From Psammoneis japonica (taxonomy: Eukaryota), in NCBI GenBank assembly GCA_008632985.1, contig QPGO01000122.1, forward strand, positions 124,001-188,000: a stretch of DNA of 64,000 bases, given 5' to 3'. The notes beneath the pieces were generated by a model. That model was not told the DNA's origin and did no database searches. It saw nothing but the letters and a program-made list of their open reading frames with translations. This document shows positions 1 to 61,027 of this stretch, in pieces (the stretch's first letter is position 1; each line of letters starts with the position of its first letter). The position numbers and the translations under genes were made by a program.

Positions 1-239
1 CATGCATCCGAGATGAAAATCAGACGTGGTGCAAGTAGCTAGTGTGGTGAATCATCGGCCGCGATGCTAAAAAGAAGACACTGTTGCACCACATCATCAA
101 AAGAACATAGAGACAAGAGATCACCATCATTAAGATCTACGTTGACAATCTAAAGCACTGGTTTTTAAACACACAATTGCGCTGAAACCCCCAAGCAATC
201 TCTCCACGAGTCTTCACCGGCAATCTCAAGATCCCGCCG

Positions 240-1470
240 CCGACGGTTGGTGTGTTACATGGGCTCCAACCACTGCCAGTGCTAGCAGCACACAGGCTCC
301 CACTGCCACCAGCACCTGCAGCAAAAGGCTCCAACTGCCTCCAGCGCCACTGGCACACAGGCGCCCACCGTCACCACTGGCTCCCACCGCCACCACTGCC
401 AGCAGTGCACAGGCTCCCACTGCCACCACTGCCAGCAGCAAAACACCTCCAATCACCACCACTGCCAGCAGCGTGCAGGGGCACCATCAACACCAGATGA
501 AAAGAATCCAACCGCCTCGAATGCCAGTGGCACCCACCGCCACCAGACAAAAAGGACAGTGGTGCACAGGCTCCAACCGCCGCAAGCGCTGGCAGCTGTG
601 CAGGGTGCAGCCTCCCACTGCCACCAGTGCCAGCATCATGCAGGGGCACCCACCGCCACCAGATAGAAATGACAGCAGTGCACAGGCTCCAACCGCTGCC
701 AGTGCCAGCAGCTGTGCAGGATGCAGCCTCCCACTGCCGCCAGTGCCAGCATCACACGGGGGTGCCAACCGCCACCAGATAAAAAAGATGGTTGTGCACA
801 GGCTCCAACATTTGCCAACGCCAGCAAATGTGCAGGATGCAGGCTCACACCGCCACCAGTGCTGCAGCAGCAGCACACAGGCTGCTGCTGCCGCCAGCGG
901 TTGTGGCAAAAGGCTCCAACCGCCTCCAGTGCCAGCGGCACACAGGATCACACCACCACCAGTGCTGGCCTTGACACACAGGCTCCCACTGCAACCACTG
1001 GCCAGTGGCAAAAAAGCTCCAACCACCACCAGTCCCAACAGCACACAGGGGCACCCACCGACATCACATGGCGAGGCTCCAAACGCCTCGATGGTCACCA
1101 GCACACAGGCTCCAACCGCCGGATGCAGGCTCACACCGCCACCAGTGCTGCAGCAGCAGGACACAGGCTGCCACTGCCACCAGTTCTAGCAGCAAAAGGC
1201 TCCAACCACCTCCAGTGCCAGCAGCACACAGGATCACACCGCCACCAGTGCTGGCCTTGATGTGCAGGCTCCCACTGCAACCACTGGCTAGCAGCAAAAA
1301 AGCTCCAACCACCACCAGCACCAGCATCATGCAGGGGCACCAACCGCCACCAGATGAAAAGGACAGCAGTGCACAGGCTCCAGCCACCCCCAGTGCAAAA
1401 GCAGCAAAAGGCTCCTGCCGCCGCCAGTGCTGCCACATTCAGCCCTGCCACAACACACAGTCCAGTCCAT
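240..1470. repeat. Degenerate hierarchical tandem repeat (core about gcacacaggctccaaccgccaccagtgccagc; higher-order units of about 120 and 290 bp), TpA-depleted
   Basis: caggctccaacc / ccaccagtgc motifs recur throughout; 833-1030 is duplicated at 1119-1320; + frames read as TQAPTAASAS-like repeats. Confidence 0.75.
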
Positions 1471-2224
1471 GAATTTATGTTGAAAACAACACCGTCAGAG
1501 ATGCCACCAACGAGACAGATCTCTTTCAAACTTTCCAACACATTGTCACATCTAGAAGCACACACTGTGGCATGGCTGCGGGAACGCACTGAAGACGCCG
1601 CCGCCGCATCATCATCATCGTGAAAGCGCCGTTTGCGTTGGCCTCACGCAAATTTGAATGAGGCCTGATTGGTGCAACTGCCATTTCAGCATCACCCCAC
1701 GTAACATTGCGCACGTAGAATCCTGCACAAGTTTTGTGAACGCATGGAAGGACAGGCCGAGTGCGACCATTTTTTCAAATCTCCACAGTCCATTGTGGAA
1801 CACTTTTGACATGCTAAACACGACCTGATTTGGACCGTTGGTATTTTAATGCATTCTACAGACATGTGGGCGTGCATTAAAATAGGTCTGGGGGTCAAAA
1901 ACTCCAAATCGCGACCCCCAAGTGTTCCACAGTTTCAAAGTCATCGAAAATGTCCAAAAACGCCTTCTGACTGCACTTTGGCTGTGAACATCACGGCAAG
2001 ACGACACGAGCACAGAAGATACGATAGATGGGTACGAGTTTGCTCCGCCGCCCCCGTGGGGGCCCGCAATGCGCGAAAGTGTGCGTGTTTGGGTAGGGAG
2101 ATTCTACGTGGCACGATCACGGGAAAAATTAAGTCCCCCCCCTTGCCCCCGAAGCCGCCCACTCTCAACGCTTCACATGTAATAAGCATGCTGCTTCCAA
2201 TGGCAACGAGGAAAGAGCAATACT

Positions 2225-3703
2225 ATGCAGCATCGGACGCCAACGGCACCAACGGCTACCGCCGACAAGGATGACAGACTGAAAGTAGGAGAAAAATCAG
2301 AAGTAGAACCATCAACAGGCATGCAGCCGTTGGTAGTAGAATCGTTATCCAGCGTGATGATGGAGCACAGCGCCGAAGAGGAAGACGACGACGACGACGT
2401 GATGATGGAGCATTCAATCTCACACGAAGCGCCACCACCACCCTCTCCTGCAAAAGTCAATGCTGCCTTGATCTTGGGTCAATCATTTTTTGGACTTGGA
2501 AGTGTGATTGCAGCCTTGGGCTTACCGGCTTGCAATCCGTTTGCCTTTGCGTTGTATCGAGAAGTCACAGCGGGTGTCTTACTGCTTGCCGCCGCTACGG
2601 CGGCTACAACTCTGAGAACGCGTCGTCCATATCAACATCATCCTCTGATTCCACTGTTTCAAAATCCGTTGCGTTTCTTATTGCTGGGTCTGGCCATTTT
2701 TGCCAATCAAGCTGGAGGTACGTACGTGCTTGCTGGTTCTGTGCGGTTGTGTGTGATGCTATTTCGCGGTCAGGAAACCATTCAGAAATACGTTTCTTCT
2801 TGCTATTTTTCTGTCAATACAGGCATTGTCGGGATCAAATTAGCAGGACCGATTGCCGCTGCGGTTTGGCAGCCCTCTCAACCCATCATGACAGTTGCTA
2901 TATGTATGGCCTTGAAGCAGGAACCCTTTATCAGGTTGCGACTCGTGGGAGTGGGTGTTGCGTTTGGAGCATGCGTGTTGATGGTACTACTCTCGTCACA
3001 GGAACGAGACGAGACGACAAGCGACAACAACAATGATGGTGAAGCAACTGCAAACACTAGCTATGCGGCCTATGCTGTGGGTAATCTCTTGTTCTTTGTC
3101 AACTGCTTGGGCACATCTCTTTACGTCATTCTCTCCAAGAAAGTTTTGCAACTGTATCCGCCTCTCACGGTGACAGCATTGTCGTACAATGTGGCTGCCG
3201 CATTCATGGCTCTGGCTGCATTCCTCTTCTCCACGTCGGCACCTTTGATGGAATTTATATGTCCGGAATGCACTTCGACTTGGAACATTCCATCCGGAGC
3301 CTTCTTTGCTCTTGCATACTTCATTTTGTTTAATTCGTGTGCCGCCTATGCCATTATGACTTGGGCCAATCAGCATGCCACGGGCACACTTGTTATGGGA
3401 TTCACGGTCCTCCAACCCGTCACGGCGGCCTTGTTCACTGTAACCTTGCTGGCGATTGGCCTTTACTCTACCTGCGACAAGGGAGTGACGCCGTGTCTCG
3501 ATCCTCCTACTTTGAGTTCCGGCTTGGGTATGTTGGGAGTCTTTGCAGGACTTTATTTGGTCATTGTTACAGAGCCAGCCAGTGAACAGGCTCATCGTCA
3601 TCAAGCTATAGTAGAAACCGACGACGAAGAGGAGGTGGTGTTGGAGGAAGAATTTGAAGATGACGAGGATAACTTTGAGATTGAACCTGTTGCAATAACT
3701 TGA
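2225..3703 (+). CDS. EamA/DMT-superfamily (WAT1-like) membrane transporter, with a probable in-frame intron at about 2718-2822
   Basis: Roughly 10 hydrophobic segments; motifs FALYRE, NQ..GIKLAGP..AAVWQPSQPI, NCLGTSLY..LSK, LQPV; GT..AG-bounded 105-bp segment; start codon uncertain (2225 or 2321). Confidence 0.85.
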   Translation: MQHRTPTAPTATADKDDRLKVGEKSEVEPSTGMQPLVVESLSSVMMEHSAEEEDDDDDVMMEHSISHEAPPPPSPAKVNAALILGQSFFGLGSVIAALGLPACNPFAFALYREVTAGVLLLAAATAATTLRTRRPYQHHPLIPLFQNPLRFLLLGLAIFANQAGGTYVLAGSVRLCVMLFRGQETIQKYVSSCYFSVNTGIVGIKLAGPIAAAVWQPSQPIMTVAICMALKQEPFIRLRLVGVGVAFGACVLMVLLSSQERDETTSDNNNDGEATANTSYAAYAVGNLLFFVNCLGTSLYVILSKKVLQLYPPLTVTALSYNVAAAFMALAAFLFSTSAPLMEFICPECTSTWNIPSGAFFALAYFILFNSCAAYAIMTWANQHATGTLVMGFTVLQPVTAALFTVTLLAIGLYSTCDKGVTPCLDPPTLSSGLGMLGVFAGLYLVIVTEPASEQAHRHQAIVETDDEEEVVLEEEFEDDEDNFEIEPVAIT

Positions 3704-4002
3704 GGCCGTTCCAAGCAAAACTGGAACAGGATTCACACAAGAGTCTTGCAGTCAAGCGGTTCTCCCGCCGATTAAGAGATTCGCAAATGAATGCACCTGA
3801 TGGTCGAGCGAAGCACAGCGACTACAGAGTGTAAGCAGAGGACCGGTTGGGCATCCAGGCACAAGGTTGAACGGACCCCATCCCACTTGAGACAGAGAGG
3901 AGAGGATGTGTCTCCCACTCCTCCTCCGACTCTCCCAACTTTCCGAAGACACGCATGCAAGGTCGTGGAAGCGAACCCTTCCATGTCTTCCCTCGCCCTC
4001 TG

Positions 4003-4248
4003 TACAGTGGATTCCACATACACTGGGCTCCGCATATGTAGCGGACTCCGCATATACAGTGGACTCCGCATATGCAGCGGACTTCGCTTATACAGTGGAC
4101 TCCGTATACACCGTAGACTCCTCCGCTTGTTACTCCGCATATACATTGGACTTAGCATATCAGTAGACTTTGCATATGAAGTGAAAACCGGTTATACAGT
4201 AAACTCCGCTTATACAGTGGACTCCGCATAGCGGACTCCGGAACTCCG
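4003..4248. repeat. 18-bp minisatellite, consensus about TAYAGTGGACTCCGCATA, about 13 imperfect units
   Basis: Adjacent units such as tacagtggactccgcata / tgcagcggacttcgctta / tacagtggactccgtata. Confidence 0.85.
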
Positions 4249-4539
4249 ACCCTCGCCTCACGGATGTACTCTTACAGACCGGAGTGGGATCTACTTGCGA
4301 GTAGGGCACTTCGTACCGCACCGGTAAGTGCGTTCGTTAGTTCCTATCGCTAAATTCTTCAGTTCATCGGCCTAATGCCGATTCACCACACGGTAAATTC
4401 TTCAGCACCGTCTGCGAAAGCCCCGTTTGCATGTTTCAGCAAATGGCGGCGTTTTGACGCGTTCTTGTGTGTGAAACGACCGACAAACGTAGAAAGCTGC
4501 CGTTGCAACGTCAACGGCTGCACGGCGCTCTCAACAAGC

Positions 4540-7150
4540 ACCACGACAATCATCCCAAATGCAAGTCCAATTGCACAATCACATTGCGCATGTTCAAATT
4601 GATGTGTTGGTGCATTCTTGCATCTGAAACGGGCGCTGTAAGATGACACTGGCAACAAAGTTTTTCATCACTGAGATTGGTGTTTGGTGCACACATCACA
4701 TCCTGGAGGCATGCAGAATCCTGCCCTGCAGGTGAAGCGGTTGATGGCCCCGTCATTTTTCTGAAAAGTCTTGACAGCTGTGAGCTGCATTTTTCTGTGC
4801 CTGTTTCAATTCCACAGCTGCAGAAGCAGCCCACATCAATTGGCACAAAATGGCACAGCATTGGAACAAAAGATTCCAGTAAAATGAGGTGCAAAAGACC
4901 CCGAAAAAGAGGAAAAACACTTTGCAACAGCAATTCTCCACCATGCCAAGACAATGTTGACTGTGCAGTGATCAAAGTGCATCATCACAGCACAGCATTG
5001 ATGCAGCAGACTAACCAAAACATGGGCTGCTCAAACACTTTACTTTTGCAGCAATTCATTTGCTTCAAGCCTCGCCAAAGCATGCTCAAAGGTGCTGACT
5101 GCAATGGCAAGTTTGTGTTTCAATGCACTGTGTGTTTGCAAGCAGAGTTGGTGCCAGTGGCACAGGTGGTGTTTTTTTGTTCCAAAACCGAGTCACATGT
5201 CAACACATGATTTTGCCTGTTGCACATTTCAGCAATTGCCAAAACATGGATCTGATCAAGATTTTGGCTGTTGTCATCATTGGGGAGACTCTCCAGAAGC
5301 TGGTGCATGCACATGCTGAGGAGTTTGCTTGCAACGTCATCTGGCGGCAGGTTGACGGGGGGGAACACCAGATGCAGAGCAGGGGTGGAACTGAATCATG
5401 TGGGCAGGGCAAGGGATGGAAGTGGGGTCGGGGTGCGTTGGTGAGCTGGGACTGCAGTTTGGTGCAGTGGTGGGTGAGTTGGTCAGCAAGTGATTTGGTT
5501 GTTGCAAAGCCAAGGCTTTGAAGGTCCCATTGTGAAAGAGTTGAGGTGTGGTGGGTTGAGCCCAAGCGTGCAGCAGATGTGTTTTTCCAAGTGGCGGTGG
5601 CAATGGGGAGGATGAAGGATGAAGGATGGCAACAGTTGTGTGCAGGTGATGCGGCATGGGTGGCAGGATGTTGGAAGAAGGATTTGGCATTCCAAGGAGG
5701 TGCTGGTGGGGCAGGGACAGGGTGTTGTTGATCGGCTCCAAAAAGAGGAGGTTGTGTGCAAAGCAGCCGGGGGCTCCAAAGTGATCGATGGTGAAGGGGA
5801 TGAGGCATTTGCCGGCATTGTTGAGGGTGGATGCAAGGGCAGTTTTGAGTTGAGTTTCATGTGTTCAAACTGCGATGTCTTGCTGGCAGACAAAGATGAT
5901 GCACTGGCAAACACTGAAAACATGTGACACATGTTCACACAACAAATGGAGTTTGATTTTTGAAAGGTGTGAGTTGAGTGCAAAAAGTGGAAAACAGAAA
6001 ATTGCAACCAGCTTCCACATGCCACAAGCTGCTGCAAGAATTGAAAATTCCCATCACGGTTTATGATTTGCCCAACAAGCACCCAATTTGGCAGTGCAGC
6101 TTGTGGTCCATTCCAGAAAACTGTTGGTCACAAGTCAGAGAGGAGAAGCGAAGTTGGGTGATGATGGGAAAACAGTCAACCACACTCCAGGTTTGTGCAT
6201 TGCATGGGAAATCCCTGCCTTGATGAAGACCACCACATGCCCATTGTGAATTTTGGCATCCCGACTTGTGACTTGTGTGAGACCCAGGAGCCAGTTTTGA
6301 ATTTGTCTGTGATGGACAGCACAAAACAAGGGTGACAGCACTTCTGGTTGGCAGAACAACACAACAGATCATGTCAAAATGGAATTTTTAAATTTGCTTT
6401 TGTTCCAGCAGCCCCCCGCTGGAAATCCAAATGACATCCCTTCAGGGGTGCACCCCAGGTGGTTTGTTTTGGGCAACTGCCCATGCATCCAACTCCATCA
6501 CTTCTTTCATGTGTGCTTTGGTGACTTGGTCTTCCTCTTTGAGAAGGACCCAACCTTGCTTTGCATGAGGGAAGAGTTTTTTGTTGGCAGCATCCACCGG
6601 AAACGTGTTGTGGCGCAAGTGCAATCCAGCATGACCAAAGCATTCACATGACTCTGCCTCCTCCATAAATCCATGGATGTGAAGCAGATCTTGCTGCCAT
6701 TCCACACCCTTGTGAACAGCCTTGCTGATCATCTTGTGCCTCTTGGTCATCACAAACATCAAGGGGGACACATCCACTTCATTGGATGCTGACAAAGTTG
6801 AGCCGTTGTTCATGGTCAAGGCAGCAAAAGATTCCGACTCCAAACCCAGCAGGACTGCTGATGTCATTGCAACCCTCTTTGTTTGAGATGCCTGCCAACA
6901 AATGTGCGCACAGTTTGGCAAGGGCTGGCATTGTTGCGGAGGTGGTCAAGGCCAAGATCACATTGGAGGATGAGTTTGGCATTTTGAGGCCATGGTGTTA
7001 CAAACTTGCCGGCATGAGGTTCAAGTTACAAAGCCAGGGTTGATTGTGCTTCTGTGACACTGCGTGATGGAAGTGTCTCACAACCCATTTCTCCAGACAA
7101 AAGAAACTCAAACTGCCCCCGACCCCCCCCCCCCCTCATCCCCCCACAGC
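4540..7150. mobile_element. Heavily decayed repeat or transposon relic of unassigned class
   Basis: Near absence of TpA and CpG, excess TpG/CpA, only broken Cys/His/Gln-rich ORFs; ends in a C-rich tract at 7115-7145. Confidence 0.5.
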
Positions 7151-7192
7151 ACTCTGGAGCAGGGATCTCTGCTCTCTCCACTCTAGAGGAGA

Positions 7193-9222
7193 GAGCAGAG
7201 CCAGTGGAGAGGGGGCTGACAGCTGACCCAGATGACCAATTGTTGTGCACATTTTTTGCACGACAAACAGTGATTGCGGAAAAACCTGAAACCAACACAA
7301 CACCACTCTCTCTGCCACAGCACTGGCTGCAGCCAGCTGCTGCTCCAGCGGAGCTCTGCTCTAGAGCAGCCAGTGGCAGAGAGGGCCCAACAGCATGGCA
7401 GCAACAACAATGACATGATGTTTTGCGGGTGTTGATGATTTGCAATTCCACAATGAGTTGACCATCCTCCACTGCCAATGTGAGTTCAGCTGTTCATCAG
7501 AGCAGCCTCCCAGTTGTAAGTGGATTTCAATTCCAGAGGTCATGGAGGAGAGAGTGAGGCATGAAAACAATGACGATTTCTTTTTTTGTCAAACGGACAC
7601 ATCCACAGTGAAAGTCTTGAATGTTGGAGTGAGTGTCGGCAGCGATGCAGCCAAGGATCTTTACACACACTCATTGCAACAAGCACACTTGCAACATAAA
7701 AGGACATTCGTGGGTGTTGAAATTGCATGTCGCATGATGATTGGAGATGCTCTGTCATTTTCATTGCTCTTTCTGCAGTTGAAACCAAGGTGCAGTGCAG
7801 CTCACTCAGATTTCATGCATGCAGAATGAACAACAGATTGCACCATCGGCTGTTTGACCCTCGCTTTCAAATCTGTTGTCATTTTCAAAAATCTCTGCAA
7901 ATCATTGTCGACAGCCACCTCTGCCTCTGTCAACTGATGACTTGCTTGCTGTTTCATCCATCATCATGCAGGACAATTGTTGCCAAAGTGAGAGCGAGTG
8001 TTGCTGGGCTCAAAAAACAATGCGCCAGCCAGCCCACATTGGCTCCATGCTCAACCGTGGTTTCTTTTTTTTTTGCAATTGCAACTTTGCCAGGAGAAGA
8101 ATGCGCAGCGCTTCTTGATGGCTTGGTGGAAAGCTTTGATGAAAATGCTTCAAAGCACAATGCATTCCTGACATTTCCACTTCACTGCAGCAGGGAAGAT
8201 GTGATCATTGATTCGCTTTGTTCCCTGCACCATGCCCATCCATTGAACCTGCCAATGATGCCATTTTGGAGCACTTCATTCAACTTCTTCAAGCCCAATG
8301 GGGAGACATGATGTCTCTCATCAACGGCCGTCTTCGTTCTTTGATCCCCATCAGCATTGGTTGCACTGGCAACAGCACCTCGATTCCTTCGGAGTTGACA
8401 ACGGATTGGTCCCAGGATGATGGAAACAATGATGGTGGAAGCACTGGAGGTGATGGGGCAAGTGATGGTGCTGTCATTGCAGCTGGCAGCACCAGTGCAT
8501 CCACGGCAGCTGGCAGCACCGGTGCACCCACGGCGATGACTGTGAACTCAACTGCTGACTCTGAGGAATGAAGAACTCATGGCTTTGGCTGGCTCTGCTT
8601 TTGAAGTGCAAATTTTGGTTTGTCAGATTTGCAGTGTGTCACTGACTTTCAGCTGGTTTTAAGATGTGCCACATGCAGCATTCTTTCCCAACCCATTGAG
8701 ATGGGCTTTGCAAAGAGCAACTGTTGGTCTTGACGGGAAAGCAGTCTTCACCCAAAGTTTCAGCCATTCCATGTGCCACTGCTTTTCCATGGAACCCAGA
8801 CACTGTGAGGTTTTGAGTGGTCTTTTGTCGCTGGTTGACGTCGGCACAAACAGCACATTGACTCCGTTGGAGGTGACTCATTGCACAGTGGGGACCGCTT
8901 CGGAGATCATGGAAACAATGCCTGGGGGGGGACCCGACGACATGGCTCAACACTGGAACAATGATCATTTCCTTTGACCTTGGCAACTCCACTGCCACTG
9001 CAGCAACGAATGGTGCGAATTCTGTTTCTTGGCAAAGCAGGACAAAGTGGGCGAGACGGCAAACTGCGAAACCCAGCGTTGTTGCGTGTTAAAACGCTGC
9101 AAGTAGAGACACTGGTACGACAGCTTCTCCGAAAGTAACAGTTGGCAAAATCGCTTGTCTAATCTGGGCCACTTTAGCGCGCGAGGTAAGCTTATAGTGA
9201 GCCAGCTATTCACATGATTTGC
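7193..9222 (+). repeat. Tandem duplication copy A (hypermutated; pseudogenised version of the 9917-10534 ORF)
   Basis: Colinear with 9229-11208 over about 2 kb; most differences are TpA or CpG in copy B replaced by TpG/CpA here. Confidence 0.9.
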
Positions 9223-9228
9223 GGTCTA

Positions 9229-11208
9229 CAGCAGAGCACCGGTAGAGAGGGGGCTGACGGCTGACCCGCCAGACGACCAATTATCGCGCACATTTTTCGC
9301 GCGACGAACAGCGGTCACGGCAAAACCTGAAACCAACGCCAACGCAACAACACGATAGCAACAACGACACGATGTTTTGCGGGTGTTGATGCTTTATAAT
9401 TCCGTCACGAGTTGACCATCCTCCACTACCAATATGAGTTCAGCTGTTCAGCAGAGTAGCCTCCCGGTTGCAAGTGGATTTCAATTCCAGAGGTCATGGA
9501 GGAGAGTGAGGCATGAAAACGATGACGATTCCTTTTCGTGTCGAACGGACGCTTCCACGGTGAAAGTCTCGAATGTTGGAGTAAGTGTCGGCGGCGATAC
9601 AGCCAAGGATCTTTACACGCGCTCGTTACAACAAGCATGGTTGCAACGTAGAAGGACGTGTGTGGGTGTTGAAATTGCATGTCGCATGATGATTGGAGAC
9701 GCTCTATCGTTTTCATTGTTCTTTCCGCAGTCAAACCAAGGTGTAGTACAGCTTACGCAGATTTCACGTATGTAGAATGAACGATGGATTGTACCATCGG
9801 CCGTTTGACCCTCGCTTTCAAATCTGTTGTCATTTTCAAAAATCTCTACGAATCGTTGTCGATAGCCGTCACTGCCTCTATCAACTGATAACTTACTTGT
9901 TATTTCATCCATCATCATGCAGGACAATCGCCAGAGTGAGAGTAAGTGCTGCTGTGCTCAAAAAACAATGCGCCAGCCACAGTCCACGTTGCTTCCGTGC
10001 TCAACCGTGGTTTCTTTGTTTTTTGCCGTTGCGATTTTACCAGGAGAAGAAAGCGAAGCGCTTCTCGATGGCTTGGTGGAAAGCTTTGGTCAAAATGCTT
10101 CGGAACGTAATGCATTTCTGGGAGCGCTAGCCTTTGTCGCCGGTATGGTGCACACCGGCTGGGAAGGAGTGACCATGGATTACCTTCGTACTATGTACCG
10201 TAGCGTTTCCGTGGAACCAGCCGATGATGTCGTTTTGGAGCGCCTCATTCAACTTCCTCTAGCCCAATGGGAAGACATGAGGTCTCTCATCAACGAGCGT
10301 CTTCGTTCTTTGATCCCCATCAGCATTGGTTACGCTGGCGATAGCACCTCGATTCCTTCGGAGTTGACTACGGACCGGTCCCGGGACGATGGAAACAATG
10401 CTAGTGGAAGCACCGGAGACGATGGGGCAAGTGATGGTGCTGTCATTGCAGCTGGTAGCACCAGTGCATCCACGGCGGCTGGAAGCTCATCCACGGCGAC
10501 GACTGCGGACTCAACTGCCTTCACGGAAGAATGAAGAACCCGTGGCTTTGGCTGGTTCCGCTTTTGAAGTACAAATTTTGGTTTGTCGAATGTGTAGTAT
10601 ATCACTAAGTTTTAGCTAGTTACAAGATGTGCCACATGCAGCATCCTTTCCCAACCTGTTGAGATCGGCTTATCGAAGAGTAACTGTTAGTCTTGACGGG
10701 AAAGCAGTCTTTACCTAAAGTTTCAGCCGTTCCATGTGCCGCTGCTTTTCCATGGAACCCAGACACAATGAGGTTCTGAGCGGTCTTTTGTCACTGGTTG
10801 ACGCCGGCAATGTTTGCAACAGCACATTGACTCCGTGTTGACTCATTGCGCGGTGGGGACCGCTTCGGAGACCATGGAAACAATGCCTGGCTGGGGGGGG
10901 GACCCGACGATATGGCTCAACACTGGAACAAAATGACTATTTCCTTTGACCTTGGCAACTCCACTACCACTACGGTAACGAATGGTACGAATTCTATTAT
11001 TTCTTGGTAAAGCAGGATAAAATGGGCGAGGCGGCAAACTACGAAACGCAGCGTTGTTGCGTGTTGAAACGCTGCAAGTAGAGACACTGGTACGACAGCT
11101 TCTCCGAAAGTAATAGTTGGCAAAATCGCTCGTCTAATCTATCTGGGCCATTAGCGCGCGAGCTAAGCTTGTATGAATAGTGAGCCAGCTGCTTCACATG
11201 ATTTTGCG
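9229..11208 (+). repeat. Tandem duplication copy B (largely unmutated)
   Basis: Colinear with 7193-9222; both copies end in ...ctgggccca..tagcgcgcgag..gtgagccagct..ttcacatgattt. Confidence 0.9.
9917..10534 (+). CDS. Hypothetical protein (possibly the last exon of a longer gene) inside duplication copy B
   Basis: 205-aa ORF of natural-looking composition with a Ser/Thr/Ala/Gly tail; its homologue in copy A is broken. Confidence 0.35.
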   Translation: MQDNRQSESKCCCAQKTMRQPQSTLLPCSTVVSLFFAVAILPGEESEALLDGLVESFGQNASERNAFLGALAFVAGMVHTGWEGVTMDYLRTMYRSVSVEPADDVVLERLIQLPLAQWEDMRSLINERLRSLIPISIGYAGDSTSIPSELTTDRSRDDGNNASGSTGDDGASDGAVIAAGSTSASTAAGSSSTATTADSTAFTEE

Positions 11209-11390
11209 TCTTGCTGGAAAGGTTATTCTTGTGGAGGAAAAAGACAACAACTTAACGTGGCAGCTAGAAACACAAAGTGAGTTGCGCCATTATCTCAGCG
11301 TCACAAAAGCAGGAACCTAATTAATAACGAGTCTGTATGGCTAAACGAAAAGCAACCATCTCGTAATTTTCCACGATGCAATCAACCGTT

Positions 11391-12711
11391 TTATAAGAGC
11401 GCATCACGCTTGGTGGAAAGCTTCTTTCGAAGATACCAAACGTAAAAGGCAAAGGCGCAAAAGTCGTTGCAAACAAAACGATAAAAAACGTAGCCCAAGC
11501 GCTCCGTTTGGGCTTGTAGATGAATCCATCCTTGCGAGTAATCTTGATACCATCAATAAAGTTGCAGGCATTGTTATTGGGAATTCCAACCACTTGCGAC
11601 TTGAGCTTCTTTTCGCACTTGCCTGCTGGCTGGTAGACACGCTCACAAGCTTCCGACAGCTCGATTTGATTGTACCCATTGTAATTATTGTCCTCGTCTT
11701 GTCTGTTGGGATCTTGTGGAGCCAGACATGAAATACAGTCGGTACTGACAACGGACTTTGTAGCATATGGTAATTCCTGTCCTCGAGTCAGGTTCTTGTA
11801 TGTGCTCCGTCCCTTGGAGTCGTCCGCAAAGTTCGTACACGTGTCGTCGGTAAACATGCCAATATAAATGTCACCACCTTGCTTGCTACAGTAGGGTCCA
11901 ACGTAATATTGGATGCCATCATCACCATCTTGATTAAGCTGACGTTGATAATTGTAGCCATCATCATAATCATCAAACTCTGGCGCCTCAAATTCGTTAC
12001 ACTCCATGTAACGACCAACATCAAACTCTTCTTCCCTCTCTGCCTCATCATCCTCGTAAGGATCGCGGTCAATGCAGTACGATTTACGTCCCTTTACAAA
12101 GCAGTTATATTCGCAATATTCGGGGTTGAATCCATCATCACGGTAGTCATTGTCCTCGCAATCGCCTATAGAACAAGTCAAAAAAGGTATTGAAATTGTG
12201 AGTGTCGAATTGATTGCCGAAAGCAATCAACAGCAAGACACACATCATTCGCATCATGTTGTACTTACACTTTTCATACAAGTACGTTTGACACTCGATT
12301 TCTTGATCACGTCGCTTCGATTCGACATAGGCTTGTACAAAGGTGGCAAGATCCACGATATAATCACCGTGTCCACCGACGCAAAAGAACGAACAGGTTC
12401 GTTTCGGACAAAGACGAAACCGAACCAATCCACGAGAATAGATAAATACCTCATTATTGTTGTTGTTGTTTTCGTCAGCATTATCATTCCACTGTTTGAT
12501 GGAATAACATCCTTGAAAAACAAGCGAGTAATCAAGCATCCACATGTTTTCATTCTCATCCTCGTTACTGCCGTCCACACGACGAGCCACGCTCAAGAGA
12601 TTCGTCCCAAATTCGAGTTTGCTGGAATGCTGCTGCTGGCAGGAATATCGTCTCTGCAGCAGCCGCAGCAGCGAGAGTAACAAGCAACAAGAGCAGCGCT
12701 ATCATTGACAT
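11391..12711 (-). CDS. Silicanin-family (Sin1-like) membrane protein; intron at about 12166-12268; apparent 1-bp frameshifts near both ends
   Basis: Signal peptide, LLSVARRV (RXL-like), SLVFQGC..QWN, LVRFRLCP..C..C..G.GDYIVD, YCIDRDPY, YYVGPYC, GMFTDDTC, C-terminal TM segment then YVWYLRKKL (in a shifted frame); family recognised from memory of Sin1. Confidence 0.8.
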
Positions 12712-12976: not shown

Positions 12977-15294
12977 ATGGCGTCCCAGGACGAGGACGCC
13001 GCCATGGAGGAGGCCGCAGCAGACGACACTGTCAATCCATCGACTCCTACTCGAAAGGCGTCACCACCCGGAATGAAACTCCGATCGGGGCGAAAGAAGC
13101 GTCGACGAAGCCGAGAAACAACCGGTCTGACTCCCCCAGACGAGAAGCAGGCACGAGCCAAGCGCAAAAAGACGCGAGACGAAGAAAGCGAGGATGAATC
13201 CATGCATGACGCGGATGACGATGATGAATCTATCGAACAAGACGTGGTACAAGCTGCGTCTAACGCTGCTGCGGCAGCTATTTCGGATTCCAAGAAACCT
13301 GCAGCAGCAGCAGCAGCAGCAGCACCAGAAAGCCTGCTGCAAAGAAAACGTTGGAACCGATTCATAAGCTCCGCATGCCGTCGCAACACACTCCGGGTCA
13401 AAAGACGACGAAAAAGACAAGGACAACCATTTCCATATCGGAATCAACATCACCTCTTGTCGCGGATGCAGCAGGGACCGCTACAATTGGAACACCACCA
13501 CCGGCTGTTGGAACGCAGAAATTGCTCTTTGGAAACAACAATAACGCTTCTTCGACGACTCCAGCATCTCAAGAATTGGAAAGCATTCTGGCTCATCCAC
13601 CGCCACCACCCCCTCGACCATCTCCGGATACTCCCGAGGGTCGTCATGATGCTCTTCCACGCAATTTGATTCGAAGAACGTCCGATATGCTTATGGAATT
13701 TACGTCCAACGTTCAAGAAGTCACTACCAATCTCGTGGTGCCTCAAGCGGAACGAATGCAAATGCAGCAAAATAACAAGAGGGGGCATTAGCCAATCGAT
13801 TCCACCCTTGGATCGTACCATGACGTGGCTTGGTTTTTTCTTGTTGCTGCATGTGGTTGTGGCGTTTGCGTATCCGTTGGGATTCAATCCAATCGGCGGA
13901 GCGGTGGTGGCTTTCCCATGTTGGCATGAGTGTGTATGGAGGCGGATCTCCTCCAGAGGTTGCTCTTGCGGTAGACCCGCTGTAGTTGCAGAAAAGGCAA
14001 TGCCACCGGTCAAGGTAACCACGGACGTTGAGTACGAGAATCCCCTGGAACCGTTTATGGAGTTGCTGGACGATTCCATTCAAGCTGTCAACGAAAATGC
14101 CACGTTCTTGAACTCCCACATGGACAAGGTGCAGAAAACGCTAGAGGAGCGCAAAACGCAATTTGCCTCCCTCCAAGGCATCATTGCCAAGACGGAAAAA
14201 TCGCTATCCAATCTCCTCATGGCTCTGCAAACCAACGACGGCGATGACGACGCCAGCAAGGGCATTCGTGGCCCCAATCTCATGGTGACCAAGTTGGGAA
14301 CCAAACTGCAAGCTTCCAAAGTAATGGGTTCCAAATTGTCACAAAGTCCCTTTCCGCCTCTCATTGATGTATCAGCCGTGTCGTTATGGCAAGATGCTCC
14401 GCCGTGTCTGACGTCGTCTCCCACGTCGCAAGATGCCGTCTTGACGCAAGAGAATTGGAAATGCACGACAAGGATTTGCGACAACGAGCTCAAGATGCGG
14501 CACGGCTGCTTCAGACCGATCCCGAATTGTCGGCGTCCATCAAGAGTTGGGTACGCGACCAAGTCAAGGCGGTCTTGGCGGCGCAGCAAATCGACCAAGG
14601 CGATACTTTGAGTAATAAGGCATCGTCGGAGCGCAAATACGGCCTTGCTCAAGAGGACGTCCAACATGTCATTGATAAACGACTCGAAATGGAGTTGGCC
14701 GATCACTTGGGTCGTGTCGATTATGCATCTCTTGGCCGAGGAGCATCCATCGTGACGACGGGTCCAAGGGCCACGTCTCGGTCGCTTGTAGACAATTTGC
14801 CTCTTGTGAATCGTCTCGCGGCTCAATGGAGGTTGCGCTTTTATGGACACGGACCCGAGGCTGCTCTGACACCGACCCAACCAGTGGATGCTCTCGGACA
14901 GTGTTGGTCGTTTGAAGCGCCCAAAAAAGTTAATCAAGACAATGAGAGAGGTGATTTTGGTACGCTGACGGTCAAATTGCCAAGAGCCATCTCGGTAACG
15001 AGCGTTGTGTTGGAGCATGTACCCAAGGAGTTGACCAACCAAGTCAAGAGTGCCTTGAAAGAATTCCGCGTCATTGGCTACGAGGACCCCAACGCCATGG
15101 GCAAACCGTGGTTGTTGGGAAGTTACGAGTACAATGTCAATCATGAACGCGTGTTGCAAGTATTTGAAACGGAAACAGAAACACAAGAGGGTGTGCCGAT
15201 TCCCAAACTACAGTCTGTGACGCTTGCCATTGACACCAATCATGGATTTGATTACACGTGTCTGTATCGTTTCCGTGTACATGGCGATCCTTAG
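12977..15294 (+). CDS. SUN-domain (Sad1/UNC-84) inner nuclear membrane protein; reading frame broken by several apparent 1-bp indels
   Basis: Basic low-complexity N-terminus, TM segment (about 13820-13880), coiled coil, C-terminal SUN motifs DYAS..RGASIV, GQCWSF, SVVLEH, LAIDTNHG.DYTCLYRFRVHG. Confidence 0.9.
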
Positions 15295-27457: not shown

Positions 27458-27619
27458 GGTCACAGAACCCAAGTTTACGCGTTGACGAGAGCTCCTGACC
27501 GAGTCATCGTCACGGATGCTTTCGGTTTTGATTTTGAAGCAAACCCGGGAAATGGCTGAGTCTCTCTCGCTTCTCTCGTCTTCATTCTAACAAGAACCTC
27601 CCATGCCACACTCTCTGTC

Positions 27620-34212: not shown

Positions 34213-34233
34213 GCTCTCTCGGTTGAGAGGGAG

Positions 34234-36983: not shown

Positions 36984-37083
36984 GGTCTTGATGCTTTCGT
37001 TGTGTCGTTCTTGTTGTCGCTCTTCTTCTTTGCCTCTTTTTGGTTGGGAGAAAAGTGAGCAATGATAAACCTCAAGGATTTTT

Positions 37084-47150: not shown

Positions 47151-48659
47151 CATTAAACCTTTCTCTCATAAACATGTCGGCTACTTTCAATTTTTGCATT
47201 CTACGGTACCGTACCGTGTCTACGAACGGAAGTAGCAAGAGTATCCTTGAGAAGATGAGTGTGACCTACTTCATCTCTACATGAGGCCAGACGAGCAAAC
47301 GGACTAACAGTATTTTGTATGCGTTCGTTCTATGAGTTATAGCATTACCGTACAGGCGGGGACGCCACACCAATGGAACCTTCTCCTATTTCCACGCATA
47401 CAACTACTTCTCGAGAGAGAATACAAACCAAGACACTGAACACGTGTGTGCGTGTGTTTTTGAATCTCGACAATTCATCATCAACAACACGCGCTCTTAC
47501 ATGCCGCCATTGAAGATTGGATCCCAATCCATGTGTTTCTTGGTGCGCATGTGAGAACGCCACTTGTTGGCGCCTTGAGCGGTACCGCAAATACCCGTCA
47601 CACCTCCACACTCGCATCTCTTGGTAGCCCGAGCGGCATGCCAGCGTCCGGATGAGGAACGCCCGGAGGCATCTTGGTGGAACGACCACGAGTCGTGGCG
47701 GGCGGAGCGAAGTAAAAGGCATAGTTGGAGTTCATGGTTCTGTGGAAGAAGACGTGGAAAACAACGTTGGTAAGAAGGACGTAGAACAATCTAATCGTTC
47801 AAAGGAGTGAGAGCAAAGGCTTTTGTGGTTGGAACGACTGGGGAGAAGACTGTGGACGTGTAGGCGTCTTGCCGCGGGAAAAACTATCCGGGTGTGATGA
47901 TTCTCTACATTTCCATGCTTGTTTCATGAAGCATCTGTCGGAACTCACTTGCAACCACTTTCACAGCACGCAAGCGCCTGGTTCCTCGAATCGCAGGGTG
48001 TTCACCGTTTGATACCCATACAAACGATGGAAATGCGAATGCAAACACCGCGCGGAAAGAACAAATTCGCTTGTTGCGTCTTGCCGCCGCTTTGAAGAAG
48101 CGCGCACACGAGGCGGATCGCTGCTGCGTCGCTCGTTGCGTACAGACTAGAAGGGTGCTTGTTATGAATACATTGTGGCCTTTACATACCTTGAGATCAG
48201 TGATCGAAGAGACAGATGTTGTGTGTTTTTGCGACGACAGCAAAAATTGTGATGCGAATTGTTGGAGAAAAAGGCGTCGAAAATTGGCGCGTTTTTGAAG
48301 TGCGCGATAGACGTCGTACGGACGGACGGTGACACCCGGAAGTCTAATCCAATCTGGTTCGCGTTTATGCGAACTCCAATTTTCGAGGTGTCACAGCGGC
48401 GACCCCAACTCGACAACAGTTATTCGTTGCTGACCTATTTCTTTTTGCATGTTCTTTGCTGTTACAGCTCCTTTTGTATTGATTACAAGCAAACTCGCCA
48501 CCGCTTTCATAATGTTCGAACGAGCAATCGAAAACGATAACCGCAAAGACGATGTCGTGGAGAAACGAGAACACGATGCCGTCGATAGTCACAAGGATGA
48601 TATTATCCTTGCAAACACATCGGCAAGAATGACATTATCCCAGAATTATCTCCCTTTCC

Positions 48660-56812: not shown

Positions 56813-57949
56813 CTATCCGACCCTCACCATTTTCGGTGCTCTCATCAATGCGTAGATGAAATAGACTGCTGCAATCAACAGCATCACCTTTACGTAGAAA
56901 GAGTACGGGCGGGTTCTTCGATATTTCAGCGGTTTCCTGATCAAGCTTTTCCCTCCGACCAACATTCCTCGCTTTTGCAAGTCACTAGGCTTTACGACGG
57001 ACGCAACAGGGAGCAGGGCCTGATTCTCTTCATCCGCCTCTGCCTCAATCTTGTCACCTTGCTGTTTCGTCAAAATTTCTGAATTCCTGCTGAGCTCCAT
57101 CTGGCTTGTAGCGCTCGATTTCTTTCTACCATTCCGACGGGCGTCTCGCATGCGTTTCATACCAACTACAATCTCCTCCCTTGATGCTCCCCGTTTGCGC
57201 AGTTCTTGCAATTGCACCAGGGCATCACAAAGCTCCTTTCCAGCAGCATCGTTCCTAACCGGATGGTACTTTTCGGCACAAGCCCGAAACAACTCCTGAG
57301 CGTTTGGAAGCGGCCACACCTTGTGATTGGGAAATGAATCCACCAACACGCCGCGAATCTCCTTCATGACTTTGTTCAATATCGGCGCCGCCAAGTCATC
57401 TTTCTTCCCCGTGATCAAAACCAATGGAAGCTCAAACAGCACAGTCCCGCTGTCATCTATGACTTCAATATTTAGCCAGCGGTCAGAGAAATGATTCATG
57501 AGCTTCTCTGCAATTCCGAATTTCAATTCCTTAATCGGTTCGTTATTTTTGTCATCATTTTCTTTCGTCTTTGTTTTGTTCAGTATTTCAACAAATTCTG
57601 TTGCTCGCAGGATCCAGTCGTCCGATAGAATTGCGGGTGATATGCCAACCGCGAGCAACGCCCCATTGTGGTTGGCACGCAAAATCACATCGCGAACCGC
57701 CTCCACCAAGGTTTCGGTTGCCGTGTGATCGACGTTTTGCTTGCGATAGGCCGAAAAATCAGCCAGAGTCATGGCTTCTGCAGCGACAGTCGTGGCATCC
57801 ACCACGCGAGGGCCAGTCACGAACCGACCACCATGATTGTAGAGGTAGCAGCTCGCGTCGGGAACGACTGGTACTGTGGCTTGTTCGGTTTCGTCACTGC
57901 TACGGCCACCCGTGAGCCTTGCACTTTCGCTATTGCCATTGAGCTCCAT
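56813..57949 (-). CDS. Hypothetical tail-anchored membrane protein
   Basis: 378-aa open frame from ATG 57949 with a single C-terminal hydrophobic helix preceded by basic residues. Confidence 0.6.
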   Translation of the reverse strand: MELNGNSESARLTGGRSSDETEQATVPVVPDASCYLYNHGGRFVTGPRVVDATTVAAEAMTLADFSAYRKQNVDHTATETLVEAVRDVILRANHNGALLAVGISPAILSDDWILRATEFVEILNKTKTKENDDKNNEPIKELKFGIAEKLMNHFSDRWLNIEVIDDSGTVLFELPLVLITGKKDDLAAPILNKVMKEIRGVLVDSFPNHKVWPLPNAQELFRACAEKYHPVRNDAAGKELCDALVQLQELRKRGASREEIVVGMKRMRDARRNGRKKSSATSQMELSRNSEILTKQQGDKIEAEADEENQALLPVASVVKPSDLQKRGMLVGGKSLIRKPLKYRRTRPYSFYVKVMLLIAAVYFIYALMRAPKMVRVG

Positions 57950-58399
57950 GTTGAGTCTTTTGTTTTTAGCTTCTGTGCATTGAATGCTTGTTGTGCCGCC
58001 CCGTTGTTCCTCTCCCTCTGATGATGAACCCCGACCCCGACCCCCGACTCGACGTTCGCGTTTGCCGTTTGCGTTGTTGGACAACTGAGAAACGCAAAAA
58101 CGACCTTTTCCTGCCTTTTTCCCACTTTTGGTTACTTTTTGAGGAGGTTTGGGATGGACGGACCTGCTCTCTCTTGGCCAGATAGCTAGAGTGGCCAGAG
58201 TAGAGAGAGTCGTCTTCAACACGGTCGACGCACAGGCAGGAACCGAGAATCGAAAAAAGCCAGGAAACGGAATGTGAAAATGGCGGGCATGACGAAAAAA
58301 TGAGCTTCATGCTCTGTCACATGTTCCTGCGTGATCCCAATCCCAAACTCCTTTTCAATGACGGATCCTGCATGTTCCGCCACCTCATTCTGAGAGCAC

Positions 58400-59830
58400 C
58401 TCATTCCGAGAGCTGAAAGAGGCCATTTGTTGTTTCAGGTCCCTTCGCCGCTCCTTTCTTTGCCATGCTCTGGTTGCACCCAGTTGCACATTCTTCAGTG
58501 CCTCCAAAAGACAAATGGAGTGCAATGGTGTCACACTCTGTCGGAATGTGGTGTGCCATCTAGAGCATTCAAAATGGAGCACATTCTTGTGGAACAAGCA
58601 AAAATCTAAAAGGGATTTGTTGTGCTGCACAATTCATTCTTGCACACACCAGCTCTTCCACCCCACACTGGGGTGCAAAAGCTTCGCTGCACTTTTGATG
58701 GATCTTGGGTGGCCAATGCTGGAGAACAAGAGGCACTTCTGCCTTTCCTGCTGGCAAATGTGGGCAGCTGAGGCACAAAATGATGTGACCAAACAGAAAG
58801 TGAGAAACGCACTCAACATGACAGAAAAAGCAAAAAAAAAAGCTGGCACCTGCCTTGCGGGCTTTTGATGGATGTGACTTTTGTCACATCTTTGCAGCCA
58901 GATGACAGAGTGTTTTGTGACTTGGCATCATAAAAATTGAGTGTGATCATTGGATGTTTTCTGCATTGCTTTCAACATCAATGCGCCGCTCTTGGGGTTT
59001 GAACAATTGACCCATCTCTTCTTGTGGGTGTGCACAAGAGTGCCTGGCACACAACAAAAAGTGGGGCAAGTGTGGGTCTCAGGATTTTTGCACCAACATT
59101 TTTTTGGGCTTCTCCAGCTGGCACCCCTGCATTGTCTTCTCAACTGCATGACCAAACCAAAAGCAGAGAAGCAGAGAGGATGAAAATGATGCTTTCCATG
59201 ATGGAATGTGGGACAACCCAAGTGGCCTGTTGGCAAAGGCCTTTGAGCCTTCTTGTGCATGCAGTGAATGCTCAGCCAATCTTGCTTTCACCCTGGGAAG
59301 CTTGAGCCAACCCAACAGTCCCTCAGGCGATGCTGCCAACCTCAACAAGTCGAAGGATGGAGATCATGTAGATGTCCTGGCTTGCAAACATTGTGGAGCA
59401 GACAGGCAGACATGGTGGTTGACACTCATGTTCTTGACATGGATGTCAGGTCATGCCAGCCCAAAACACCTGAGCATTTTCTGGCAGATCACAACGGAGA
59501 GAAAAAATGCAAGCATCAAGTCATGCCTTGAGCAGGGTTGCTTTTTCACTCCCTTTGCACTGTCATGCAATGGGCTGCGTGGCAAGGAAGCCAAAACAAT
59601 GCTCCATCTGTTGGCAGCAGCACAGCCAGCTGACAAATGGCAGAAGCCTCACTTGGAAGTTGGTGGCTGGAAAGTTGTCAGCTGCATCAATGCCACAATG
59701 AGCATGACTGCGGTGAGAGCAACCCACCATGTCTCACACCCCCTCTTTCCAGATTGGCTCAAGACACTCCCGTGGGAGGACATGGCTTGTCTGTCCCTGT
59801 GCTTGCACTGGACAGCACCAATGTGATCAA
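58400..59830 (+). mobile_element. Decayed 3' part of a CRE-like non-LTR retrotransposon (restriction-like endonuclease region)
   Basis: LH.L.C, FHD....L..KAF.PS, CLEQ..FTPF.LS..GL.G.EA...L..LA....KWQKP, INA.MS..AVRATH match the CRE-type C-terminus; the TpA/CpG-depleted block extends about 58300-60600. Confidence 0.7.
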
Positions 59831-60549
59831 CCTCCACCTGCAGCAATGGAGTGCCAACTCAATCTTCCAAGATGCCATCAATGCCACCCTCCCAAGTTGG
59901 TCAACACCATCTCACAAGCACAGTTCTGGCAGCAGGCTCCACTCAAATGGTGTGCACAAGTTGGCACATTTGTGCAAGAGATCACCACCCCTCACTTGCA
60001 TGATGCATTTGCTGCATGATGCCCATTTTCCCTTTTTTCCATGACAGAAGACAACACCAAAAAAATCTCAATTCAATTGTGACAAGAACATCCTTGCCAT
60101 CAACCATGACATTGTCGTTTTCTTTGAATGGCCACAGTGCTCAAGAGATGAGTGGAGAGCAATGGACAGCAGCAGCACAAGCAACACAGATGCTTGTCAG
60201 TTGTGTGTTCTCAGCATGTGCTGTGTGCAGAACTGCACAAAGTGTGTTGGACCGCCATCAACAGAGACAGCATCAATGCATTTGTCTTTGTCAAGTGCAC
60301 GGAACACTGCCGGTTGGAGGTCGCTCCAGCTTCAAGCTCACATCACCACTCAGTCAAAACGGGACGTAAAGGCCTCAACACATTCCGCAAGCTTGCAGAA
60401 AACGGAATGGGTGTGTCTTGGCCGTCAGCAACGAAGATGAAATTGCGCTCCGTTTGATGAAACGAAATGCGGAACATGAGGGCACATTCCTTGGACAAGC
60501 CCAAAACAGAACTCAGAGAAAGGCCACAGTTTTTACGGAATGAACAGTC

Positions 60550-60779
60550 GATTCTCGTTCCCTGTGTTGGTCATTGCGACACATGCATTCGACTTGTGCT
60601 CAAGCAACGAGTGCTCTCTCTACTCTAGAGAGTAGAAGCACTGTTCGTCTGTCTCCAAGTTGGACGCCGCTACTGCTGAATTCTCGATTGAACAAACGAA
60701 CAACATCTACGATTACAAAGCAAGCTCGTATTCAGTAACTCGGTTCCAGCAAGTGACGTTGACTTTCGGGAAGCTTGGC
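60550..60779 (-). repeat. Local duplicate of the RdRP 3' end and 3' UTR (source copy at 60860-61075)
   Basis: Both copies run gattctcgttccctgtg ... ttcagtaactcggttccagcaagtgacgttga.tttcgggaagcttggc. Confidence 0.9.
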
Positions 60780-61027
60780 CCAAAAGACGGAGTGCGGAAT
60801 AACAAACGGAATCTGGCGAAAAACCCTCATTCCGTTCAATTCCGTCGATTCCCTCTAGATTCTCGTTCCCTGTGCGGTCATTGTGATACATACATTCGAC
60901 TTGTACTCAAGCAACGAATGCTTTCTCTACACTCTAGAGAGATTAGACTATCCCCAAGTTGTACGCTACTACTACTGAATTCTCGATTGAACAAACGAAC
61001 ATCTACGATTACAAAACAAGCCCATAT

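Follow-up and report, generated by a model that had tools for sequence, protein, structure and literature searches.

The question raised by this locus is what process removes the dinucleotide TpA from long, discrete stretches of a diatom chromosome. The locus is a stretch of 64 kb from Psammoneis japonica (assembly GCA_008632985.1, contig QPGO01000122.1, positions 124,001 to 188,000), called the window below, and all coordinates are counted within it. The original prediction, made from the letters of the window, was that its TpA-poor blocks are the product of a transposon-targeted hypermutation which turns TpA into TpG or CpA, in the reverse direction of repeat-induced point mutation (RIP). 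Our analysis indicates that a process specific to TpA very probably acts in place on a domain of DNA. Its clearest target is a Copia retrotransposon, and what kind of enzyme or mark could cause such a footprint is considered after the evidence from composition, duplicated sequences, and the element itself.

TpA-poor blocks and the direction of change

Over the whole window the observed/expected ratios (O/E) are 0.38 for TA, 0.77 for CG, and 1.37 for both TG and CA. In windows of 500 bp the TpA O/E drops to 0.00–0.13 over several long stretches, as opposed to 0.3–0.9 elsewhere, and in these same stretches TpG and CpA rise to 1.5–2.5 and CpG is mostly low. A two-state hidden Markov model (HMM) of T followed by A called five blocks (Table 1), all of them within a few hundred bases of where they had been claimed to lie. 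Together they make up 24,677 bp, or 38.6% of the window. Within the blocks the O/E is 0.036–0.092 for TA, 0.34–0.61 for CG, 1.59–1.75 for TG and 1.48–1.85 for CA; outside of them the values are 0.557, 0.955, 1.20, and 1.23, respectively. The five blocks hold 112 TpA, compared with 859 expected at the O/E of the DNA outside (log10 of the Poisson p about −227). The loss of TpA is accompanied by decay of CpG in five of six blocks. As had been proposed, the depletion is restricted to discrete, silent-looking intergenic domains.

In the numbering used here the first block is a region at 240–1600, the HMM blocks are 2 to 6, and block 3 (21974–33957) is split into a part 3a and a Copia part. The first block had been listed with the others, and its TA O/E is indeed low (0.13–0.43), but it is a T-poor array of 32–116-bp tandem repeats that the HMM did not call, and its status is ambiguous. 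The composition of the array may be coded by the repeats and not due to hypermutation. We treated the region as low-complexity and excluded it from every count.

Table 1. Coordinates of the TpA-poor blocks, their edges, the duplicated sequences, and the parts of the Copia element in the window
Feature	Position	Strand	Remarks
T-poor tandem-repeat array, ambiguous	262-1500		low TA and CG, high TG and CA; not called by the HMM
Block 2, TpA-erased	4398-9089		16 TpA, 169 expected; CpG O/E 0.34; copy A of the duplication makes up its right 1.9 kb
Block 3a, TpA- and CpG-erased	21974-27225		CpG O/E 0.0-0.56 (500-bp windows); single copy; no recognisable coding domain
Hypermutated Copia part of block 3	27226-33957	+	TA O/E 0.07-0.29; CpG near normal, 0.67-1.09 over 27501-34000
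Block 4, TpA-erased	36970-39441		6 TpA, 93 expected; strict depletion about 37300-39224
Block 5, TpA-erased	42790-45631		13 TpA, 101 expected; no duplicate for polarity
Block 6, TpA-erased	57933-60619		11 TpA, 97 expected
Tandem duplication, copy A	7190-9225		mostly in block 2
Tandem duplication, copy B	9226-11210		normal composition, 80 TpA and 131 CpG; proxy for the unmutated state
Mutated paralogue at left end of block 4	37073-37903		matches 45577-47151
Tandem units, normal composition	45577-47151		paralogous to 37073-37903
Duplicate at block 6 edge	60550-60779		normal paralogue 60858-61075
Right edge of block 2	9065-9104		inside copy A of the duplication
Edge zone inside Copia element	33959-34086		TpA back to normal density; 3' LTR untouched
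Right edge of block 6	60597-60621		inside sequence with normal paralogue 60858-61075
Ty1/Copia LTR retrotransposon	27226-34466	+	LTRs, target-site duplication, polypurine tract, Pfam domains
Copia LTRs	27226-27457 and 34235-34466	+	94.9% identity over 235 bp
Putative target-site duplication TGTTTG	27220-27225 and 34467-34472		flanks both ends of the Copia element
Polypurine tract	34225-34234	+	directly before the 3' LTR

The direction of the change can be read from four duplicated sequences, each represented both within a block and outside the blocks. All of the duplicate pairs cited in the original prediction are real. At the 120 TA sites of the outside copies, in non-overlapping alignments, the block copies read TG at 46, CA at 38, TA at 18, and something else at 18. 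Thus, 84 changes from TA to TG or CA stand against 3 in the reverse sense (TA in the block, TG or CA in the normal copy), and with one overlapping pair included the counts are 96 and 3 (binomial p = 5e-25). CpG is polarised likewise in the duplicates, 93 to 11. The other transitions are near symmetric, with G or C in the block copy in 85 cases and A or T in 66, and the pressure from A:T to G:C is therefore specific to TpA; a generic drift from A:T to G:C, which had been named beforehand as the outcome to watch for, is not what the duplicates record. In the alignment of 7190–9225 with 9226–11210 the decay of CpG is skewed by strand (CG to CA 45, CG to TG 25), whereas that of TpA is not (30 and 25). 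The open reading frame (ORF) at 9866–10531 of the unmutated duplicate had no usable match in the protein atlas.

Both strands are affected, as had been claimed, since the products are balanced at 50 TG and 46 CA. The two outcomes are interspersed (runs test p = 0.92 over 55 sites), and no strand-coordinated runs of TG or CA were found in the four pairs (p = 0.92, 0.69, 0.61, and 0.07); each site was therefore hit singly, on either strand. The flanking bases influence which product results (R, purine; Y, pyrimidine): RTAR became CA 19 times and TG 4 times, while YTAY became TG 22 times and CA 7 times (p = 6e-5). Among the 112 surviving TpA, RTAY is nearly gone (ATAT 0 compared with 91 in normal DNA, GTAC 1 compared with 133) and YTAR is enriched, TTAA 4.6-fold and CTAG and CTAA 2-fold (chi-square p = 1e-14). 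In normal DNA the ratio of TAY to TAR is 1.30, while among the residual TpA it is 0.16–0.62 in every one of six sub-blocks. From the flanks and the survivors it follows that the hit falls on the A of 5'-TAY or, seen from the other strand, on the T of 5'-RTA. The conversion of TpA has reached a saturation of 85–95%.

The edges of the blocks are 25–130 bp wide and lie inside continuous homology, not at the ends of repeats or elements. In copy A of the tandem duplication, 53 of the 64 TA sites up to 9065 are converted and 2 are kept, while past 9065 seven of nine are kept (Fisher p = 2e-6), and the homology to copy B is unbroken across this edge. Within the Copia element no TpA occurs between 33314 and 33959, and from 34086 onwards TpA is dense again. 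Such sharp edges within continuous homology must therefore be borders of domains and not insertion junctions. The conversion of CpG to TpG or CpA fades near 8890, about 200 bp inside the TpA edge at 9065, so the TpA and CpG footprints have different edges. For three of the block edges, the sequence at the edge has a local duplicate of normal composition that lies just outside a block (9226; 45577–47151; 60858–61075).

Read depth was taken from a public run, X1, whose contigs were matched to 21001–41000 and have a word depth of about 65–80 in single-copy DNA. By this measure the blocks at 21.5–27.2 kb and 37.6–39.4 kb are single copy. In each of the four duplicate sets one copy is mutated and the other is normal. 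Because one copy per duplicate and also single-copy blocks were hit, duplication is not the trigger, unlike in RIP.

The Copia element and related proteins

The element in block 3 belongs to the Ty1/Copia group: it has direct long terminal repeats (LTRs), a target-site duplication, a polypurine tract, and integrase before the reverse transcriptase (RT) domain RVT_2. The ORF at 30088–32508 matches gag_pre-integrs and SH3_retrovirus, both under the Pfam cut-off, and RVT_2 follows downstream of these integrase-associated matches at 32512–34209 (E = 8e-30), which is the Copia order. A TGA stop at 32509–32511 divides the integrase and RT frames at a place where relatives have the Arg of a 'DPR' motif, and it fits a CpG-type change of CGA to TGA.

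The Copia polyprotein frame has 6 in-frame stops and only 9 Tyr in 2,133 codons; the Tyr content of host genes in the window is 2.0–3.5%. The prediction that conserved Tyr codons of transposon proteins would read as Cys or His was borne out by an RT alignment with 35 relatives (53–59% identity) as the outgroup. Twelve of the 13 conserved Tyr columns are altered in the window RT (7 His, 4 Cys, and 1 Trp), whereas any single one of the 35 relatives has 0–4 altered of 12–14 such columns. The catalytic motif reads HVDD where the consensus of the relatives is YVDD. At 294 conserved RT columns there are 55 altered residues, of which 22 revert through one change of TG or CA to TA; the remainder are 3 of CpG type, 13 with another single change, and 17 that need at least two changes. 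None of the 120 closest RT proteins is poor in Tyr, the lowest content being 2.23%. One transposon has thus been destroyed, in a way that agrees with the original prediction. The term 'transposon-targeted' is shown for one of six blocks only: the discrete domains stand confirmed, but a transposon origin is seen in that one block. A Pfam search of 143 ORFs from the five non-Copia blocks yielded no transposon domain and a sole match, to DUF7741, that was sub-threshold (E = 0.0078). Relics of great age, or simply silent spacers, may be what these blocks are.

The two LTRs of the element date the change relative to its insertion. Of the 14 TpA in the 3' LTR, 10 correspond to TG or CA in the 5' LTR (6 TG and 4 CA), with no case of the reverse, and none of 13 CpG is changed (Fisher p = 1.5e-4). 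Since the LTRs were identical at integration, these ten differences must have arisen after insertion, in the present chromosomal copy. In this LTR the loss of TpA was faster than the decay of CpG, at roughly 80 times the background rate as estimated from one LTR pair. By word depth (2,981–6,364, compared with 65–80 for single-copy DNA) the Copia family has about 45–95 copies. Over the 20 kb at 21001–41000 there are 146 variable places with a share of at least 10%; among the 40 listed, a few have TA elsewhere and CA or TG here, one has the reverse, and two have TG versus CA.

Similar proteins and loci occur in other public records. Out of 80 metagenome loci with related Copia RTs, one is TpA-erased (L039), and the other 79 have a TA O/E of 0.42–0.85. 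This locus (L039:1-1789, the 1,789-bp contig JAAUXW010330483.1) has a TA O/E of 0.04, a CG O/E of 0.20, and a CVDD motif, and its RT is 40% identical to that of the window. Three of 147 further cluster representatives (P0343, P0354, and P0295) have Cys or His instead of Tyr at the conserved columns. P0343 and P0388, ENA metagenome proteins of one 90% cluster, are Copia polyproteins of 2,061 residues with a single Tyr each, and they differ at 27 of the 2,061 positions, 13 of which are Cys versus His. A difference of Cys versus His needs two base changes and is what independent hits of TA to TG and TA to CA on one Tyr codon are expected to leave. The Tyr-less Copia proteins suggest that the process is widespread, at least across other records and other Copia lineages.

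Explanations and known systems

TpA hypermutation has been described in one other organism, the chlorarachniophyte Bigelowiella natans (Mettrop et al., 2026 preprint, bioRxiv 10.64898/2026.01.13.699255; the following draws on part of that preprint). The original prediction, to whose author no described system with this signature was known, is thereby out of date on this point, because the preprint reports the same change of TpA to TpG or CpA. In mutation-accumulation lines of B. natans, 231 of 302 nuclear mutations were in integrated giant virus and virophage sequences, and 230 of these 231 were A to G or T to C, all at TpA and on both strands. The rate was about 1000 times the background, with 11 of 15 lines affected and 2–45 mutations per line. 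TpA-poor coding sequences of B. natans were enriched for transposon domains, 1-kb clusters poor in TpA and rich in CpA and TpG were enriched in its non-host or silent regions, and the authors propose an ADAT2-like DNA adenine deaminase. A search of the full-text literature returned no report of the signature in diatoms and, for any organism, this preprint only; in the part of PMC4504042 used here, TA is mentioned solely as a nucleosome-excluding step.

The TpA hypermutation in our window is the same kind of process as that of B. natans, and it is new for diatoms. In both cases the changes are nearly all A:T to G:C and occur only at TpA, the products are TpG and CpA, and discrete regions are affected, which in the window would be silent DNA and in B. 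natans are non-host inserts; the blocks in the window easily pass the cut-offs applied to B. natans (Rho TpA at most 0.43, Rho CpA+TpG at least 1.52, 1-kb clusters). There are also clear differences. The host here is a diatom (a stramenopile) and not a chlorarachniophyte (a rhizarian), and what was hit is not a viral insert but an LTR retrotransposon, along with intergenic blocks that have no annotation. The depletion is near saturation (O/E 0.04–0.09), whereas the region of nucleocytoplasmic large DNA virus origin in B. natans is at 0.45, and in the older blocks, unlike in B. natans, TpA loss is coupled to decay of CpG. The 5'-TAY rule, edges of 25–130 bp, and diatoms are not mentioned in the main text of the preprint. 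Lastly, the activity in B. natans was caught de novo, while nothing in the window points to a process still under way.

RIP, known from Neurospora and other ascomycetes, has in common with our observations that irreversible, dinucleotide-specific transitions arise in place and on both strands and cause missense and nonsense changes in transposons. It converts C:G to T:A, mainly CpA to TpA, and duplicated sequence sets it off, with mutations in both of the copies. In the window the direction is opposite, with TpA destroyed and not made from CpA, and one copy of each of four duplicate sets was mutated, as were single-copy blocks.

We would explain the footprint as follows. Discrete, probably heterochromatic, intergenic domains would be hypermutated in place after integration, T:A pairs of TpA becoming C:G. 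In duplex DNA, an enzyme recruited to silent chromatin would flip a single base of the flexible TpA step and alter it. Most likely this enzyme would be a deaminase-fold protein, TadA/ADAT-like or other, that deaminates adenine, and the resulting hypoxanthine would be read as G. Transposons would be inactivated irreversibly, in a mirror image of RIP, and the process would be the same in kind as that of B. natans. The chances that a dedicated editor of this sort is at work appear to us evenly balanced. The chemistry that would give A to G is that of TadA/ADAT and of the TadA-derived adenine base editors, and the natural substrate of TadA is the U-A-C of an anticodon loop, which resembles 5'-TAY. 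However, the known natural TadA/ADAT enzymes act on tRNA and the base editors need single-stranded DNA, while the substrate here would be duplex chromosomal DNA. To our knowledge, no natural adenine deaminase acts on duplex or chromatin DNA, the adenine base editors being all laboratory-evolved, and we know of no natural enzyme of any type that turns A:T into G:C in chromosomal DNA. ADAT2 is said to edit DNA in amphioxus (cited in 10.64898/2026.01.13.699255).

Several considerations weigh against a dedicated editor or limit the evidence for it. No deaminase or TET/JBP domain was found in the ORFs scanned, which are those of the window only. Deamination of A and modification of T are not separable by sequence because both change the same base pair, and in the long term the footprint of a dedicated editor would look no different from that of a base mark with a steady mutagenic by-product. 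Since five of six blocks have no recognisable transposon, the case for 'defence against transposons' depends on a single element. The estimate of an 80-fold rate is rough, since just 3 non-TpA differences between the LTRs enter into it. Which share of the TpA loss inside the Copia element is private and which is inherited are not separable because contigs of tangled repeats break at the variants. Finally, X1 is one sample, probably the assembled one, with the library type unrecorded, and the check that it offers is not fully independent.

Instead, the palindromic TpA could carry a symmetric base mark that is both heritable and mutagenic, the TpA loss being its by-product with no dedicated mutator, a reading that we consider rather unlikely. 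A TET/JBP enzyme would convert T to 5-hydroxymethyluracil (5hmU) or 5-formyluracil (5fU), or to a base-J-like adduct, and the mark would be copied at replication like CpG methylation. It would label silent chromatin, and occasional mispairing (5fU mispairs with G) would erode TpA as 5-methylcytosine (5mC) erodes CpG. Consistent with such a mark, CpG has decayed in the same domains in five of six blocks, its edge lying about 200 bp inside the TpA edge, and the changes are strand-symmetric, independent from site to site, and limited to domains at about nucleosome scale. In dinoflagellates a TET/JBP homologue makes a transposon-silencing 5hmU (PMC11572971), which is a thymine-directed, repeat-enriched mark in an alga of the SAR group (stramenopiles, alveolates, and rhizarians) and offers a route to T-to-C changes if further oxidised; the part of that article used here mentions no mutational footprint. 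Older work in one dinoflagellate had 5hmU preferring TA and TC contexts (cited in PMC11071213), but the base-resolution map of Breviolum, as given in the part of PMC11071213 used here, shows no sequence preference of 5hmU, at TpA or otherwise. In the B. natans preprint the mutations come in bursts (11 of 15 lines, 2–45 per line), which a regulated editor fits better; by analogy these bursts would favour such an editor over a steady mark in the diatom as well.

Ordinary decay of CpG by deamination of 5mC resembles the TpA loss in that a palindromic YpR step is lost to TpG and CpA in silent domains, and the two co-occur in five of six blocks. CpG decay is unable to remove TpA, though, and in the young Copia LTR TpA was changed at 10 of 14 sites and CpG at 0 of 13.

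Very improbable, in our view, is A-to-I editing at the RNA level (ADAR-like or fungal TAD-like) fixed by reverse transcription, or APOBEC3-style editing of cDNA before integration. ADAR and APOBEC enzymes also produce clustered transitions that disable selfish elements, the clearest target in the window is an LTR retrotransposon, and ADARs are described as favouring a 5' U (10.64898/2026.01.13.699255). The Copia family is, moreover, of high copy number, and some of its TpA loss was possibly inherited. These enzymes act on RNA or single-stranded cDNA, in strand-biased runs that are inherited via the copy of the element, whereas the changes in the window are strand-symmetric, post-integration, and bounded by domains. 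ADARs prefer a 3' G, which is disfavoured here. Editing of the transcribed strand only would leave the two LTRs identical, and the 5' LTR has 6 TG and 4 CA that are absent from the 3' LTR, which places these changes after integration. The two strands of the element were hit alike, as also seen in the RT (7 His and 4 Cys). In addition, single-copy blocks free of retroelements have the same signature, and block edges cut across continuous homology.

Hardly any weight can be given to a native composition, that is, foreign or transposon DNA that always avoided TpA (e.g., to escape an UpA-cutting RNase), or to GC-biased gene conversion. TpA is scarce outside the blocks as well (O/E 0.557), which would agree with an avoidance of this kind. 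However, the paralogues, the sister LTR, and the outgroup proteins all indicate loss of TpA, so that a native origin is contradicted for four of six blocks, and the relatives of the Copia clade have normal Tyr (a minimum of 2.23% among 120). Selection cannot have been preserving function, as catalytic and conserved Tyr residues were destroyed, and the transitions outside TpA are symmetric.

An artefact of sequencing or base calling, in which modified bases of silent chromatin are misread as TG or CA, is scarcely credible. The unrecorded library type of X1, and its probable identity with the assembled sample, leave some room for it. X1 contains 0.92 of the 31-letter words sampled from 2000–11500, half of which is block. 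A contig of 5,748 bp at depth 68 covers 21506–27253 with 4 differing letters, and one of 2,540 bp covers 37634–40173 with no differences; contigs as clean as these, at such a depth, make miscalling unlikely. A strand-specific lesion is expected to give mixed calls and not one fixed state. The like signature was found in L039, P0343/P0388, P0354, and P0295, and in B. natans it was seen when mutation-accumulation lines were sequenced with Illumina.

We also rejected UV photoproducts, or generic alkylation, that are poorly repaired in heterochromatin, since transitions outside TpA are not raised.

What the window adds to B. natans is a second lineage, a saturated long-term footprint in a retrotransposon, and constraints on the mechanism. 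If the hypermutation is as we read it, a counterpart of RIP in the sense of A:T to G:C is not confined to one chlorarachniophyte, and a process of genome defence or heterochromatin would exist in diatoms, which are major primary producers of the ocean, and probably in other marine eukaryotes too. A search for the enzyme would have to account for the preference for 5'-TAY, equal action on both strands, domains with sharp edges, independence of duplication, and a rate above that of CpG decay. For annotation, it matters that affected transposons lose Tyr codons and the stops TAA and TAG, acquire long spurious ORFs, and are missed by homology-based methods. The G+C content of the affected domains also goes up, and models of composition and mutation are distorted by it. 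A broader view, which we offer tentatively and hold to be possible at somewhat less than an even chance, is that diatoms, and perhaps many SAR protists, have a chromatin-guided system that acts on duplex TpA with a 5'-TAY preference and nucleosome-sharp edges and erases transposons permanently. Such a system would amount either to an adenine deaminase of chromosomal double-stranded DNA, the first natural one, or to a second heritable palindromic mark beside CpG methylation, and the Tyr-less, Cys/His-rich Copia ORFs of marine metagenomes would be its fossils.

Neighbouring genes and repeats

Two host genes of the window have diatoms as their best named relatives. For an arginine methyltransferase these are Chaetoceros, Cyclotella, Thalassiosira, Skeletonema, and Stephanodiscus (47–51% identity), and for a glucokinase Amphora (52%). 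A Pfam search of 81 more ORFs outside the blocks had a Sad1/UNC domain as its sole match, and tRNA genes or Rfam families that might serve as barrier elements were not found in the window. The Sad1/UNC (SUN) domain (E = 2.5e-22) is in the ORF at 14368–15291 on the plus strand, which adjoins one of two segments of the gene-rich part, 13354–14240 and 18530–19328, that share 66% identity with each other.

Tandem repeats of 24–108 bp form a G-rich array at 20696–21202, within a 469-codon ORF (20236–21642, minus strand). This array lies immediately left of the largest TpA-erased block and, at 1.9, has the maximum TpA O/E of the window.

About 400 bases past the right edge of block 6, the last block, a gene for an RNA-dependent RNA polymerase (Pfam RdRP, E = 1.5e-27) begins at 61031 and runs off the end of the window at 64000 (minus strand). 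Its presence there may be a coincidence, or it may matter in case the silencing is guided by small RNAs.

Next to block 4 there is a putative minus-strand gene at 39332–40787. A contig of run X2 omits 39443–39546, 39643–39734, and 40625–40700, all with ends CT..AC, and the three intervals look like short GT..AG introns of an expressed gene, X2 itself resembling an RNA run. On the blocks X2 gave no cover, which is evidence neither for nor against their transcription. The transcript of the putative gene reaches with its 3' end about 100 bp across the edge of block 4.

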